Under the pieces are notes generated by a model. It was given only the letters and a program-made list of their open reading frames with translations, ran no database searches and was not told where the DNA came from. Positions 7,846-56,298 of a stretch of 64,000 bases of DNA are shown here, piece after piece. Source of the stretch: Pseudovirgaria hyperparasitica (lineage: Eukaryota); assembly GCA_010093815.1 (NCBI GenBank), contig ML996568.1; one strand, given 5' to 3'. Numbering within the stretch: the stretch's first letter is position 1; the number at the start of each line of letters is the position of its first letter. Position numbers and translations under genes: made by a program.

Positions 7846-9368
7846 TCACTCCTCCTCACTCTCCTCCCCCCTCGTCAACCGCACAAACGTGCGCACCCGC
7901 CGCAAAACCTTCTCCCCCCTTCCCCTCTCCCTCTCCTCCGCCCTCTCGGCCGCCTTCCTCGCCTCCTCCGCCTCCTTCTCCGGGTTCCGCATCCCATCGA
8001 CACACCCAAACGACTCGTCCGAGTCCACCTTCCTCAGCGCCCGACGGCCCGAGTTCGGCTTGCTGCTCGCAAGCGCCTCAGAGAGGTTCAGCTTGGAGGC
8101 GCCGAACTCGAGTCGTTGGAGCCTCGGTGTGGACTCCTCGCGCGTGAGAGCACGCCGGGTGGCAGGACGCGGGCCGGGCCCAGAAGCGGAGGCGGCGAGT
8201 TCGGCGGCAAAGTAGTCTGCCGAGATGCTGGCTGCTCCTGGGGAGCGGCGAGCGAGCGTCTTGAAGCGCAGGTTAGCAGGGCTTGCAACAGAGCGTAGGT
8301 CCGAGAGGACGGAGCGTGAGCGGGAGAGAATGCGGCCGATACTGCCTTTTCTGCTTACCTGGTGCGAGAGAACTTCGACGTTCTCTGGTCTGGCAGGAGC
8401 AGATGGTGTCTGGTGCGAGGGAATCTCCCAGGTGCCTTGTTGCTGGTAGGGGGATGGGGTGGTGAAGCTCAGCTGCGCTGGCTTCTGGTCGACGCTGCCT
8501 TGCTGGGGCTTGTTCGATTGCTCAGAGAAACTTCTCTGTTGCGAGATGGATGATGGTGGTGGTGCGTGCGACCCTGACCTTGGATTGGTCGAAGGGTATG
8601 GCTGAGGTCTGTTCAGAAGATCAATGGTAGGGTGAGCGTATGGCTTCTGCTGAGCCTTTGCGGAAGAGCTGAAGGGTGGAACATGAGGCTTGGACCGTGT
8701 CGTCCGTGGCGTGTCTGCTAAATGACTATACGGCTTCTGCTGAGTTTGCTGCGCTGATCGGAACGAGTGAGCATGAGGAGCTTGCTCGATGTAGGGAGAG
8801 TGCTTTTGCTGCTGCTTGAAGCTAGTCTGCTGATGGTAGGGGGAGCTGATAGGAGAACTCGGAAAGCTAGACTGTTGTGTCTGCGGTGACATGAAAGGCG
8901 ACGAGTAAGAGGAAGGACTCCATCCGGATTCGTTGGAGGTTGTACTGATAGGTGACTGCATAGATGATCCTATTGGACTACCATGAATTGGATCCAGATG
9001 CTCACGGGGACGTGAGATGCTGTCCTTCTTCACCGTTTTCGGTGTTGGTCTGACGGTCGAGTTCAGAAACTGGTGAACAGCCTCTATCTGAAGCGCATTT
9101 GGACGTTCTGGACGTGGTGGAGCTGGACCTGACCTCAACGGCAACGGCGGAGGAGAAGGCGATTTTTCGGTCTTGTCATCGTCGTCCTCTGAAGAATCTA
9201 ATCCGAGTTAACTGAATGCCACCTTTTCAACGAAAGGAACGTACTACTGTGACGTCGCTGCTGTCCACGCTTGCGATCATCCTCCTTCGACTTCGATTTC
9301 GAAGTCTTGTTGCCGCCAAATGCACTACGAAATGCAAGCGCTGCGTCCATAGCGTAGCTATCAGCCAT
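7846..9368 (-). CDS. Hypothetical Pro/Ser/Gln-rich protein, 2 exons (9368-9245, 9197-7846)
   Basis: ATG at 9368 (MADSYAMDAALAFRSAFGG...); a 47-nt GTACGT...TAG intron at 9244-9198 splices in frame into the 432-aa ORF; Pro-rich motifs (PPPLPLR, PPRPERP); charged C-terminal helix. Confidence 0.65.
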
Positions 9369-11609: not shown

Positions 11610-13730
11610 CTAACCTTCCTCTTCTTCATCACTGTCCAACGGCGGAGGGGCAGGTAAGCTCCAGAGACCCAGACTGGCTGGTGCCATGGAACAACGTCGA
11701 CCCTTGTCAACTCCGAATTGTGAGTCCTCAACTAGCTCGATCGGAGGGGATGATAGTGGAGGTGGGAGTATTTGAATCGGAGATGAAGGTATGATCAGAT
11801 CGGGCGGACGTGCAAGAGACTCTCCACTGTTTGCTGCAGTGCTTAGAGGCGGGACTTGTTGGGAAGAGTTGCATGTCACAGTTGTAGTGACAAGAGACTG
11901 CGTTGCTTGAGTGATGTCGATAGTCGTGGCTTGTGATGGGTATCTCATCGCGCGCTGTTTGAGATGTCTGCCTGCTTTCCGTTGACTGTAAGTCTTCATC
12001 TCTTCGTGCAATTGCGCTTCTGCCTGCGAGCTTCCGCTACCTTGGGATTGCTCCTGAACACTTCTGTTTTCCGAAACGGGCATACCCTTTTTCTCCGCGA
12101 TGGGAAGCCGCGGTAAAGGATCTGGACCATGCCATGGGCAGGCAGGAGAATCTAGGTCAATGGAGTGAAGTTCTGACTCGTGGTGACAAGCAGCAGAAAT
12201 ATCTTGCACCTGTAATCCATACGTTGGTTTCGAACACGCAGTTGAAACACAGACCGGATTGGCCCTGGAACTTCCATTCTGTGACCCTTGCGTTTGTGCT
12301 AGCTTTGAGAGCCTGTCTCCGTCTTCCGATCCTACAATTGCATTACTATTGGAGCCCAGGTCTGCTTCAGAATCCTCATCCATCGTGACCAAGTTATGGC
12401 CTTGCGACTCATCTACAAGTTCTTCGTCTTGTGACGGTGGAATGACATTTCGGAACATGGTGCGCTTGTTGACTTGCGTACTGGTACTTGTTCGTTGGTT
12501 AGCCTTGGGAACCGCATCAACCATCTGCAGACTTTGCGGCGCAGGGGAAGAGACTGTGATATTGGCTGAGCTCAGAGGCTCATCTTTGATCTGAGTACTG
12601 CCACTAGAAGAGCCTGACGCAGAGTCCGCGAAGAGCACTCTTTGAGTTCTTCTGCTCTTTGAAGGAGTTTCCTGAACGATTTCTCGTACCCGTGCATTGA
12701 CCGGCGAGTCGTAGAATCGATCTGTTCCTAGCGTTGTGATCGCAGAAGATGCTGGTGACTGCGAAGACGGAATTTCTCGTCGTTTAGATTTCTGCGGAGT
12801 AGCAAGTACATGGCCGGTGGAGTGCATAGATCGTCGTTTTTCGGGTGACACAATATTGGGATTAATGTTATCTTGATTCTGAGTGATTTGGGTAGCCAGT
12901 AAAGCTCGCCTTCGGGCATGTCTAATATCATCTGGTACTCGAAGAGCATCTTTTGAGGCCGGACTCCAGTCGGAAGCCATAGGTATGGCATCAGAGGCGA
13001 CGCTGTGTGTATCGTCCTGAGTACCCAGCTCAACATCGGTGCCAGTGCCCTGTACGGCCCATTCATCCTGGTCCTCAGCGTCATTCATAGCCATTTCCTC
13101 ATCGTCCGATGCAGGGACTTCTAGCATCTGCGTCAACGTGCGCTGCTTATGCCGTTGTAAACTATCTTTCTTCTTCCTCCGTGTGGCGGCAGAGCCTGCT
13201 GGGGTCACTGAACGGGCTGAAAGGACAGTATCCTCAGTCAGAAAGTCTTCCAGTTGAGTCAGGGTGCTTTGACTCCTAGAGGTATGCCTTCTTTCCATAG
13301 CATTACGGGAGGTGTCGCCGTGTGCACTGAAATCGTCATCGTCAGATGGGGTGGCTATAAGTCTAACTCGTCTTCGTCTTGGTCCTCGATTATTGCCTGC
13401 CCTTTGTCCGTCGTACACGGTTGGGCCAACAGCCGGCGTGGGACCATCAGTATCACCGAACAGCAATGTTCCTTCTCCCTCCTTTTCTTCGTCCCCTTCT
13501 TCTTCTTCCCCTTCTTCTTCTTCAGATTGCACTTCACGTCCATTCTCGAGCCATTGCGCCTGTGTCAAGGTCTTCTGTCTCTTCTTCTCCGGCGTTTCTG
13601 GAATAACCCTGCGTATGCTCCTTCGTTTCGGACGGAAGCGTCGTTGTCTCTTTACGGTGCCAGATTGGTATACCGTAGATGAAGAATTAAGTCGACGACG
13701 TTTGGAAGATTGAAGCCCTGCTTCTGACAT
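11610..13730 (-). CDS. Hypothetical low-complexity nuclear protein (~706 aa), candidate DNA replication/repair scaffold
   Basis: Uninterrupted 2.1-kb ORF; first ATG at 13730 (MSEAGLQSSKRRRL); basic NLS-like clusters, acidic tracts, repeated QxTLTQ and many S/T-P and S/T-Q sites. Confidence 0.75.
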   Translation of the reverse strand: MSEAGLQSSKRRRLNSSSTVYQSGTVKRQRRFRPKRRSIRRVIPETPEKKRQKTLTQAQWLENGREVQSEEEEGEEEEGDEEKEGEGTLLFGDTDGPTPAVGPTVYDGQRAGNNRGPRRRRVRLIATPSDDDDFSAHGDTSRNAMERRHTSRSQSTLTQLEDFLTEDTVLSARSVTPAGSAATRRKKKDSLQRHKQRTLTQMLEVPASDDEEMAMNDAEDQDEWAVQGTGTDVELGTQDDTHSVASDAIPMASDWSPASKDALRVPDDIRHARRRALLATQITQNQDNINPNIVSPEKRRSMHSTGHVLATPQKSKRREIPSSQSPASSAITTLGTDRFYDSPVNARVREIVQETPSKSRRTQRVLFADSASGSSSGSTQIKDEPLSSANITVSSPAPQSLQMVDAVPKANQRTSTSTQVNKRTMFRNVIPPSQDEELVDESQGHNLVTMDEDSEADLGSNSNAIVGSEDGDRLSKLAQTQGSQNGSSRANPVCVSTACSKPTYGLQVQDISAACHHESELHSIDLDSPACPWHGPDPLPRLPIAEKKGMPVSENRSVQEQSQGSGSSQAEAQLHEEMKTYSQRKAGRHLKQRAMRYPSQATTIDITQATQSLVTTTVTCNSSQQVPPLSTAANSGESLARPPDLIIPSSPIQILPPPLSSPPIELVEDSQFGVDKGRRCSMAPASLGLWSLPAPPPLDSDEEEEG

Positions 13731-13905
13731 GGCGTGTTTGGTCAACTTGTCGTCAAGCGGAGAGCTCTTGAACAAAAGACTTCGGACGAACACAGCATTT
13801 TCTCAATCTATGAGATCATAAGAGCAATATGCTTGGGAAACGGATTGTATCCTTTGCCATGTAGGCCAAACTGCTATCGACAATTGGCGTGATTGATGAT
13901 TGAAG

Positions 13906-54100: not shown

Positions 54101-54516
54101 TACTCCCATGATGACCTCAGGTTCGACTGGGTACGTTCGATGTTGGCTCTCGATCCGTCGGATCATCTACTTATGACGGCGTAAGGGCTAATAATAAATA
54201 ATGTTGTGGTGTAAAGCCTTCCTCTTCAATCCTTCAGGCACACTCTTAGAAACCTATTTGGTTTGTACCCGCGGATGTACATTGTAGAGCACAACATTAT
54301 AAGGATGATTCTATGTGTAAGTAGGCTGTCGATCAAATGTTTTGTCCATTATATATACGCTAGATCTCGTCTTCCAATAGCTCGATACTCAGCAGAACAC
54401 TGTCGACTCCATTACTCCTCCTTGCCATTAAAATAATTGGATATAAACAGACAAAACACGCCATCGCAACGGCATCGCACAACTTGAACCCAAGTCCAAC
54501 CATTCCAATTTCCAAA

Positions 54517-54885
54517 ATGTACGCTATCACTCCTATCCTCCTCCTCGCCAGTCTCTTCAGCACCTCGCTGGCTGCCGACATCTACATCCAAGGCAGGCAT
54601 TTCGGCGGCGACGACCGGATCCAGATCGGCAATACCAACTGCGGGCAGGATGTCTACCACTACTCCGACATCACCTGCGATGGCAACGCCAGAATGCATC
54701 TCGGCAGCGTCGTACCCCATGACTGCAAGGCCGATGCTCCAGGCAACACATACACAAACATTGTAGCGTCGGGCAAGTGTAAGGCACACCTTGGAAACTT
54801 TTATCAGCAGGATGACGATGCGGATGATAACGAGGAGGATTATGAAGACTTTCTTGAGAGTGATGATGACACCAATGAGGACTGA
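54517..54885 (+). CDS. Small secreted protein (122 aa) with three HET-s-like amyloid repeats and an acidic tail
   Basis: CAAAATG start, TATAAA ~70 nt upstream, signal peptide MYAITPILLLASLFSTSLA, three ~21-aa repeats ending [IL]G[NS], four Cys, D/E-rich C-terminus; C/G-ending codon bias. Confidence 0.8.
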   Translation: MYAITPILLLASLFSTSLAADIYIQGRHFGGDDRIQIGNTNCGQDVYHYSDITCDGNARMHLGSVVPHDCKADAPGNTYTNIVASGKCKAHLGNFYQQDDDADDNEEDYEDFLESDDDTNED

Positions 54886-55840
54886 GTTATGGTTAAAGGT
54901 ACCGAAGATGATAAGTGGTGTTCAGGCAGTACCGGGTAGTTTGGTTCCTACGCGGTAGCAAAAACTCCTTTTTAGTCGAAAACATACTCTCTTACTCGAT
55001 CCAACGTAAAGTATCTCTGTGACTGTAACAATGGGTTTATAAAGCTCACTCGCACGTAACATTTCAGGGCTTGTTGAGAAGTACAGCACAGACAGTCCTG
55101 TGAGCATCCAATATCAATACGACGTAGTACCGAACTCGATATATGAGAACGCACTCGGGTCCCAATACCTATGTATATCTTCCACGGCTAGATTCCGGGA
55201 TCAACTCCGATTCGAATGGCTTTGAAAACCTGCAGCGTGCGAAGGCTTCTTCTGGCGTCTAGTATCCATTTGTCACCAGATCGCCAGCATCGCTCCAACT
55301 CTACCGCTGGCATATTGAATGGTCAATTCCTTGCGATGCCGTGAAATTGCGTGTGGAGTGCTGTAATATGGAGGACAGGAGGTTTTATGATCGCCTGTGC
55401 AGCGTATGACGCGTTGTGGTACGACATACTTCTAATGTCCAGTATACGAAGTCTGGTGTCACTGTAATAAGCGCCTGAATATGTACTAAGGTAAGGCATT
55501 ATTCAAGGACGACAGAGTATAGACGTTTTATTGACGACGAGTTACGTAAGTCTACGGTGATCATTCGCCTAACTCTCGTACAAAACGTTTGCGGCTGTCC
55601 AGCTCCCAGGGGATGACAATCAAAGCCCTTGTCAAAATAGGCGAGTCGATACATGTGGCACTCCACAAATTACCAAGCGCGTCGTATACTCATGTAGAGC
55701 CCCCAAAGTGGTTCTTTGTGGCTTCTTTTCGATAAACAGTTATTTGTTCATGGGACTACAAAAGCTGCATGTTGGGTCGGACCCAGAGGCAGGTTTTTTT
55801 CAAAAGCCCTGATAGAGTATTACGAGCAGTCTACAGCACA

Positions 55841-56298
55841 ATGCTCTACTCTACCCTTATTTCCCTGCTACTACTGGGTGTAAGCACTACAGAGGCCCGA
55901 CCTCCTACACTGGTGCAGCTATCACGCCGCGAACACGAGACGTGCTACTCGGAAACAGACATCTGGTGCTGTACCAAGAACAAACCTCTTAATAGCCTGA
56001 CAGACTGCTATACCGATGATGACGAGGATTGGGTAAAAAGGCGATGTAGTTCGTGGGTCGAGTGGTATCTAGTATGTTGTACGGAGGATGAAGATGAAGT
56101 GAGTTCTCCAACTATTGCGTAAAACTGCGAGAATACGAGCTGACTATGAGGTAGAATGCGACCCCTGGTGCTTTGATCTGTTCAGATGTGGATTATGATC
56201 ACGACGATGACGACGACGATGATGATGATGATGATGATGATGGCGACGATGATGACGATGATGACGACGACGACGACGATGACGATGATAAGGCTTAG
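55841..56298 (+). CDS. Secreted 8-Cys hydrophobin-pattern protein with poly-Asp tail, 2 exons (intron 56099-56154)
   Basis: Signal peptide and RR site. After splicing GTGAGT...CTGAC...TAG the Cys spacing is C-x7-CC-x11-C-x12-C-x9-CC-x14-C, ending D13-G-D15-KA*. Confidence 0.75.

Follow-up and report, generated by a model that had tools for sequence, protein, structure and literature searches.

A fungal family of small, probably exported proteins with three HET-s-like repeats and a predicted beta-solenoid core

The stretch of DNA analysed here, called the window, comprises 64,000 nucleotides of contig ML996568.1 from the fungus Pseudovirgaria hyperparasitica (assembly GCA_010093815.1), and at positions 54517-54885 it carries a small open reading frame (ORF) whose product was originally predicted, from the letters alone, to be a secreted protein built from three repeats like those in the prion-forming domain of HET-s. 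So far, HET-s-type motifs are known solely from inside cells, where they are switches without a native fold that relay a death signal from a NOD-like receptor (NLR) to a pore-forming effector. In our judgement there is about an even chance that the product is a secreted, self-contained and rigid mini-solenoid, with repeats that resemble the HET-s-related amyloid motifs (HRAMs), that is probably locked by disulfides and has no switch from a soluble to an amyloid state. The parts of the ORF are the following.

54517-54885 (+), whole ORF: ATG start, 122 codons, TGA stop, with no intron required
54517-54573 (+), residues 1-19: signal peptide, with likely cleavage after S-L-A (Ala19)
54577-54639 (+), residues 21-41: repeat R0, predicted coil 1, with the invariant G38-N39 at its end
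54640-54651 (+), C42-G-Q-D45: four-residue linker, strongly conserved, with the invariant Cys42
54652-54714 (+), residues 46-66: repeat R1, predicted coil 2, the most HET-s-like repeat, with C54, N57, A58, L62 and G63
54715-54741 (+), residues 67-75: nine-residue linker with the invariant Cys70, a Pro-Pro mostly conserved in homologues, and the lowest model confidence
54742-54804 (+), residues 76-96: repeat R2, predicted coil 3, with the invariant C88, and also H91, G93-N94 and the terminal aromatic Y96
54805-54882 (+), residues 97-122: C-terminal tail, two Gln followed by 24 acidic-rich residues

The hydrophobic N-terminus, the three repeats and the acidic tail described in the original prediction were all found in the translated ORF, each in its expected place. 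The leader reaches a maximum nine-residue Kyte-Doolittle hydrophobicity of 2.52, and its cleavage site after Ala19 was assigned with the -3/-1 rule. Residues 99-122 of the tail contain 16 Asp/Glu and zero Lys/Arg. The ORF also contains four cysteines, C42, C54, C70 and C88, that had been overlooked.

The three 21-residue repeats resemble one another beyond chance. Within the mature core, R1 and R2 form the best non-overlapping pair of 21-mers, and their BLOSUM62 score of 34 was reached by one of 1000 shuffles. When profiles of the repeat blocks, cut from nine non-redundant members of the family presented below, were aligned with each other, every pair came out in register (R1:R2, P=1.1e-5; R0:R1, P=9.5e-4; R0:R2, P=0.011), and column-shuffled controls attained these scores in 0/150, 0/150 and 6/150 cases, respectively. 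R0 is the weakest repeat, yet its register is the same as that of R1 and R2. A loose triple motif, defined as hydrophobic-x-hydrophobic-G-[DNSH] occurring three times with a spacing of 16-28 residues, was present in this ORF only among the 460 six-frame ORFs of at least 60 residues in the window, and appeared in 2 of 200 shuffled ORF sets. The claim of three repeats is therefore upheld, their register being confirmed by profile alignment and shuffle controls.

Searched exhaustively with phmmer, 1.84 billion representatives yielded 12 proteins at E<=0.001: the query itself (P0001), seven small relatives (P0003-P0008 and P0011; E from 9.8e-26 to 2.8e-8) and four others (P0009, P0010, P0012 and P0013) that are unrelated long repeat proteins. 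Word-indexed searches added two more relatives, P0002 and P0014. One member, the hypothetical protein P0005, comes from Podospora didyma (Sordariales), with the accession KAK3368465.1. A tree of the family had mostly weak forks, and no claim made here is based on it. The start methionine is common to all nine aligned members, and the N-terminal extensions that some database entries carry fall before this conserved residue. In 9/9 aligned members it is followed by a hydrophobic leader of 18-20 residues that ends in a small-x-small pattern (S-L-A before Ala20 in this protein), which makes export of the protein likely, as the original prediction had proposed from its single sequence.

All the members are small and consist of the leader and a domain of about 75 residues, and several of them terminate within a few residues of R2. 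Longer or fused relatives turned up neither in the exhaustive phmmer search nor when proteins of 332-2000 amino acids were searched with a profile, the latter being weak evidence. The absence of an effector domain or NLR, already noticed in this stand-alone gene, is shared by its homologues, which have the same architecture of leader plus core. A metagenome locus (L001, 10001-10114) that encodes the most conserved nine-residue stretch of the family does so in an alternative frame of a bacterial gene, and was discarded as a spurious match due to chance. It illustrates that spurious loci are to be expected when large collections are scanned for short motifs.

Seven residues are invariant among the nine non-redundant members (G38, N39, C42, L62, G63, C70 and C88), and C54, Q44 and D45 are each kept in 8/9. 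The linkers between the repeats are short and conserved, the first having 4 residues (C-G-Q-D) and the second 9-10, with Cys70 and the Pro-Pro. The acidic tail is found in this protein alone and is absent from the homologues. In P0006, P0014, P0021 and P0024 its place is taken by a short extension with two extra cysteines in a C-x-W-C pattern, and the C-terminal end of the solenoid appears to be decorated differently from lineage to lineage.

The core is predicted to be a three-coil beta-solenoid with one 21-residue repeat per coil. For the whole protein, AlphaFold2 (AF2) run with 9 sequences gave a predicted local distance difference test score (pLDDT) of about 90 over residues 21-100 and low values for the leader and the tail (44-50 in the tail). 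For the mature core, run with 16 sequences, the mean pLDDT was 90.9 and the predicted template modelling score (pTM) 0.79, with the five models ranging from 89.1 to 90.9; the block that contains the linker of residues 67-75 had a pLDDT of 74. The core model shows three sets of strands, one set per repeat:

R0, predicted strands: residues 21-25, 28-29 and 34-37
R1, predicted strands: residues 46-54, 59-62 and 65-67
R2, predicted strands: residues 78-84, 89-92 and 95-97

The ESM Atlas contains a model of the same protein made without a multiple sequence alignment (pTM 0.56), and all its family-named neighbours are beta-helices or solenoids: pectate lyase with a template modelling (TM) score of 0.67, GH28 with 0.64 and NosD/Beta_helix with 0.62. 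The feature search of this atlas gave no usable match for residues 20-98 of P0001 or residues 94-172 of P0006. The monomer prediction that had been proposed as a check of the solenoid therefore agrees with it in both AF2 and ESMFold.

In an exhaustive structural comparison of the core model with 48,161 PDB representatives, the HELLF fibril (6EKA) came first by Z score and the HET-s fibril fifth, and with the full-length model the HELLF and HET-s fibrils took ranks 1 and 2. The structural alignment to HET-s (2KJ3) has 24-27% identity over 55-68 residues. The PDB matches that could be placed are nearly all beta-solenoids, with no immunoglobulin (Ig)-like chain among them. Foldseek searches of the PDB with two models gave 107 and 104 matches at E<=10 and zero at E<=0.001; the placed ones are mostly solenoids, their ranking being uninformative.

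The superpositions separate by handedness.

Right-handed class: root-mean-square deviation (rmsd) 2.3-4.5 Å, often over 57-76 of 79 residues; pectate lyases, polygalacturonases, PL6 lyase, autotransporter passengers, TPS domains, CAP C-terminal domain, pentapeptide repeats and bactofilin
Left-handed hexapeptide helices: rmsd 7.7-8.4 Å over 53-67 residues; LpxA-type 3t57, NeuO 3jqy, GlmU 1fxj and CcmM 7d6c
HET-s-type fibrils: HELLF, rmsd 4.7 Å over 50 residues; HET-s, rmsd 5.5 Å over 55 residues

According to two sources (PMC6027354; bioRxiv 10.1101/2020.07.06.188508), the two-rung solenoid of HET-s is left-handed and that of pectate lyase C right-handed. The split in rmsd between right- and left-handed structures suggests a right-handed AF2 model whose rungs are outlined as in HELLF, although AF2 is perhaps biased towards the commoner hand. 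A right-handed model would make cross-seeding with HET-s less likely.

These data can be arranged in the following mechanism for the mini-solenoid that we favour. The leader would direct the protein into the endoplasmic reticulum and be cleaved after Ala19, and the 79-residue mature core would then wind, in the oxidising secretory pathway, into a three-coil parallel beta-solenoid. The register of the coils would be held by four ladders, the first made of Gly followed by Asn/Asp (G38-N39, G63-S64 and G93-N94), the second being the aliphatic core I37/L62/L92, and the third and fourth polar or aromatic. Two disulfides are the simplest reading of the four conserved cysteines, given that the protein is probably exported, and neighbouring coils would probably be stapled by these putative bonds. 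The pairing that we propose from the repeat register is C42-C70 and C54-C88, since C54 and C88 would point inwards and flank the same arc of adjacent rungs, and C42 and C70 would lie just after the fourth strand, likewise in adjacent rungs; the alternative is C42-C54 and C70-C88.

A single chain that brings all three rungs, with short linkers and a probable covalent lock, is read here as a stable fold and not as an amyloid switch. Such a unit would be made folded, without the disorder or the loop freedom that keeps HET-s waiting in a soluble state. The exported conserved cysteines, the short linkers, the right-handed fit and the Pfam matches below the cutoff (see below) together suggest a protein away from the HET-s type of switch.

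The rigid flat sheets would offer a binding surface, and a candidate face is the conserved, outward ladder Gln36/His61/His91. These residues, encoded at 54622-54624 (Q36), 54697-54699 (H61) and 54787-54789 (H91), occupy the same repeat position and are Q/H in 9/9, 8/9 and 7/9 members, respectively. As they probably face outwards, they could form a ligand- or metal-binding ladder. The uncapped ends of the solenoid could permit limited end-to-end self-association, and the species-specific acidic tail would probably keep the protein soluble or cover one end.

How far the repeats are really of the HET-s type was judged from the hallmarks of HRAMs. In PMC4055769, and in that numbering, position 13 is positively charged, positions 14 and 16 are hydrophobic, position 17 is Gly and position 18 Asn/Asp, and rung 2 closes with an aromatic residue, which is Y281 in HET-s; hallmarks are also described in PMC4518210, and PMC9815663 singles out the G[DN] bigram. 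All three repeats of this protein follow the arc-Gly pattern, with a basic residue, then alternating hydrophobics and then Gly plus Asn/Asp. Position 13 is R34, R59 and K89 and is mostly basic across the nine members; the hydrophobic positions are I35/M60/A90 and I37/L62/L92. The arc glycines G38 and G63 are present in 9/9 members and G93 in 8/9, and the residue that follows is N39 in 9/9, Asp at 64 in 8/9 (S64 in this protein) and N/D at 94 in 8/9. R1 and R2 have a large hydrophobic residue at repeat position 6, and the aromatic Y96 closes the last rung as Y281 does in HET-s.

Other traits of these motifs are missing. The first Asn ladder is not present in the nine members, its equivalents being I22, Y47 and N77, with an aromatic residue at position 47 in 9/9 and Asn at position 77 in 1/9, namely this protein alone. 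Likewise, the flexible loop of about 15 residues that separates the repeats of HET-s (PMC6027354) has no counterpart among the conserved linkers of 4 and 9-10 residues, and the C-terminal Gly/aromatic loop is not present either.

The Pfam profile for the prion-forming domain of HET-s (PF11558, HET-s_218-289) matches residues 51-96 of this protein with profile positions 13-64 of 65 (E 0.077, 13.4 bits), spanning R1 and R2 in order. It matches 4/10 members, with E-values of 0.077 (P0001), 0.034 (P0002), 0.036 (P0005) and 0.0077 (P0006, 16.6 bits), calculated per protein against 24,736 models and listed at E<=10. Taken for one family named in advance, these values are far from chance. In PMC4518210, the Pfam PF11558 signature is said to pick up only about 25% of the HRAM-bearing HeLo proteins, and so a missed cutoff does not exclude an HRAM. 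The likeness to HET-s that had been pointed out is therefore supported indirectly by the Pfam alignment over R1-R2 in 4/10 members and by the 2KJ3 superposition, and it falls short in that all the profile matches lie below the cutoff and that the Asn ladder and the loop are absent. We hold the descent of the repeats from HET-s-type motifs as a tentative possibility, somewhat less probable than its contrary; convergence on the same solenoid grammar as HET-s is the alternative.

Several observations weigh against the favoured reading. The PF11558 scores of 13.4-16.6 bits are about half or less of the gathering cutoff of 32.2. HET-s and HELLF were not retrieved from the PDB sequences at E<=10, either with the family profile (5 matches) or with P0001 (9 matches). 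In P0001 the IPT/TIG profile (PF01833) outscores HET-s, with E 0.013 and 15.9 bits over residues 20-54, which indicates that beta-rich motifs easily give sub-threshold matches. The fold was predicted from a shallow alignment of 16 rows, 13 of them different. Finally, most of the homologues end uncapped just past R2, and an open three-coil solenoid may be unstable as a monomer.

When compared with known systems, the protein shares with HET-s and HELLF (HRAM1-5, PF11558) the in-register 21-residue pseudo-repeats, the positive residue, alternating hydrophobics and Gly-Asn/Asp of each repeat, the aromatic residue of the last rung, the occurrence in Sordariales and, in the models, the predicted layout of stacked rungs. 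It differs from them in its signal peptide, in its third repeat where they have two, in its four conserved cysteines, in the lack of a HeLo, HeLo-like or NLR partner and, as far as the model goes, in its apparent right-handedness, HET-s being left-handed. Geometrically, the model is fitted best by the right-handed parallel beta-helices of pectate lyases, polygalacturonases, autotransporter passengers and the CAP C-terminal domain, which superpose on 57-76 of its 79 residues with an rmsd of 2.3-3.3 Å. These are extracellular proteins with coils of about 25-30 residues, at least 7 coils, caps and catalytic or adhesive decorations, whereas here there are three coils and no cap; a sequence relation is lacking, and no match to Beta_helix, Pectate_lyase, Glyco_hydro_28 and similar Pfam families was found at E<=10 in any of the 10 members. 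Insect beta-helical antifreeze proteins are small rigid repeat solenoids locked by disulfides. They and the small secreted cysteine-rich proteins of fungi are, like this protein, small, exported and rich in cysteine, but their repeat length and sequence differ from those of this protein, and the likeness is one of analogy only.

The alternative that survives best, although we consider it unlikely, is that the protein is an extracellular functional amyloid or polymer, in which the open solenoid ends let units of three rungs join up as cross-beta fibres that coat the hyphae. An open-ended three-coil solenoid that is unstable alone may indeed associate in this way, and the protein would then resemble CsgA (curli) and FapC, bacterial proteins that also have a signal peptide followed by imperfect repeats forming a beta-solenoid and that are both among the structural matches. 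CsgA and FapC, however, are cysteine-free, do not fold before they are nucleated and are served by nucleator and secretion genes of their own. CsgA fits the core model at an rmsd of 8.0 Å, and there is no Curlin_rpt or Fap Pfam match, no sequence relation and no nucleator or secretion gene among the neighbours, so that the resemblance is one of fold class only. In this protein the conserved cysteines and the short structured linkers suit a unit that is already folded better than one converted by a template; the tail, in which 16 of 24 residues are acidic, would oppose stacking at one end; and the family is rare, with few sequences, unlike abundant matrix proteins.

A broader version, according to which a HET-s-type motif was captured by secretion, tripled and stapled by cysteines to give a solenoid that polymerises or templates outside the cell, is in our opinion rather improbable. 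If true, this would be the first time that the fungal HRAM fold is met outside the cell, and a polymerising secreted solenoid of this kind would be a natural minimal example of an amyloid rung becoming a folded domain, or the reverse.

There is a slim chance that the likeness to HET-s is convergent or accidental and that the gene simply encodes one more small, secreted, cysteine-rich protein that folds differently, for instance as an Ig-like sandwich of the IPT/TIG type. TIG is the top Pfam match of P0001, in a sub-threshold alignment that covers R0 and the first half of R1 and two cysteines; a TIG-repeat protein aligns to residues 12-58, with Cys42 and Cys54 both matched in many of its repeats; and the HET-s matches are all sub-threshold. 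The TIG match, however, is itself under its cutoff of 20.9 bits and is seen in 1/10 members, against 4/10 for HET-s_218-289. Moreover, AF2 (pLDDT 90.9) and ESMFold give a solenoid and not a sandwich, an Ig-like chain does not appear among the structural matches, and repeats that align in register are not expected of an Ig domain. The TIG/Ig reading was accordingly judged unlikely, being sub-cutoff, limited to one member and opposed by both models.

As a separate observation, the segment at 54574-54678 (residues 20-54), i.e., R0 plus the first half of R1, resembles the start of IPT/TIG, including the C42-C54 spacing. The 1207-residue TIG-repeat protein matches at E 8.2e-9, a value summed over 6 stretches, and was judged a probable coincidence at the level of the motif.

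That the ORF is an unexpressed non-gene, or a piece of another gene model, appears very improbable. It does lie in a 13.7-kb stretch without recognisable domains, and a search of sequencing runs listed two runs of one study that contain this DNA and no run with its RNA. The start methionine, the leader, the cysteines and the position of the stop are nevertheless kept across divergent homologues with 31-55% identity, and these homologues were called as genes by several independent sources. In addition, the leader and core have a third-position GC content of 0.72, whereas the flanks, read in the same frame, have 0.37-0.44 (neighbouring genes lie at 0.47-0.64), and this contrast with the flanks supports coding.

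Finally, a secreted seed or decoy that templates or caps the HRAM prion domains of competitors' HeLo or NLR proteins is scarcely credible, in spite of the motif resemblance and of a family member in Sordariales, an order in which HRAM systems abound (PMC4518210), given that the targets are cytoplasmic with no uptake route evident, that the model appears right-handed and HET-s is left-handed, that the family does not conserve the Asn ladder of repeat position 1, and that HET-s and HELLF themselves, with near-identical folds and 17% identity, do not cross-seed according to bioRxiv 10.1101/2020.07.06.188508.

Coming back to the mini-solenoid, this seems to be an unannotated family in which HRAM-like repeats are combined with a predicted fold that is secreted and probably locked by disulfides, an architecture that seems not to have been described. 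Our full-text literature searches found no description of a secreted or cysteine-bearing HET-s-like protein, and the terms "signal peptide", "secreted" and "extracellular" are absent from the main text of PMC12261475 and PMC9815663, as are "signal peptide" and "secreted" from PMC4518210. The initial impression of novelty thus holds as far as the literature was searched. The HRAM surveys covered only effector C-termini and NLR N-termini, as PMC4518210 indicates, and a family of this kind would therefore have been missed.

If the repeats are related to those of HET-s, the same rung grammar would be at work in a normal folded domain that is exported and disulfide-locked, and the family would represent an evolutionary link between functional amyloids and globular beta-solenoids, as well as a 79-residue natural model for the study of solenoid handedness, capping and polymerisation. 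If they are convergent, it would still be an unannotated fungal secreted family with an unusually small predicted beta-helix, of modest practical interest.

With respect to the genomic context, the gene is followed by genes for an amidase and a class II aminoacyl-tRNA synthetase and preceded by those for a DUF3295/AreA-GATA protein, Rad4, Dbf4, Atg12 and a P-type ATPase. A second copy of the motif was not found in the window, the family hidden Markov model recovering only the protein itself among 1691 six-frame ORFs (next E 1.3) and tblastn giving the same result. No NACHT, NB-ARC, HeLo or HeLo-like domain was detected in the scanned ORFs, which were 21 of the 40 with at least 150 residues in the window (including 10 of the 11 with at least 250) and 26 of the 44 with at least 90 residues between 43.7 and 57.4 kb, where 16 unscanned ones are overlapping frames.

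Further upstream in the window there are two long ORFs on the minus strand, at 11610-13802 (730 residues) and 7846-9207 (453 residues), with no Pfam family at E<=0.001. The segment 43700-57400, situated between the DUF3295/AreA-type gene and the amidase gene, is a 13.7-kb region of orphan genes, in which the 26 of 44 ORFs of at least 90 residues that were scanned gave no Pfam match. A possible core promoter, the box TATATATA at 54350-54357 (+), lies about 160 bp 5' of the ATG, as read from the nucleotide sequence only. About 1 kb downstream, the ORF at 55769-56122, also without a Pfam match, contains from an internal Met (55841-56122, +) a hydrophobic, leader-like start followed by a stretch of about 70 residues that includes seven cysteines as well as acidic runs, and it may pair with the ORF at 54517-54885 as small secreted cysteine-rich genes.

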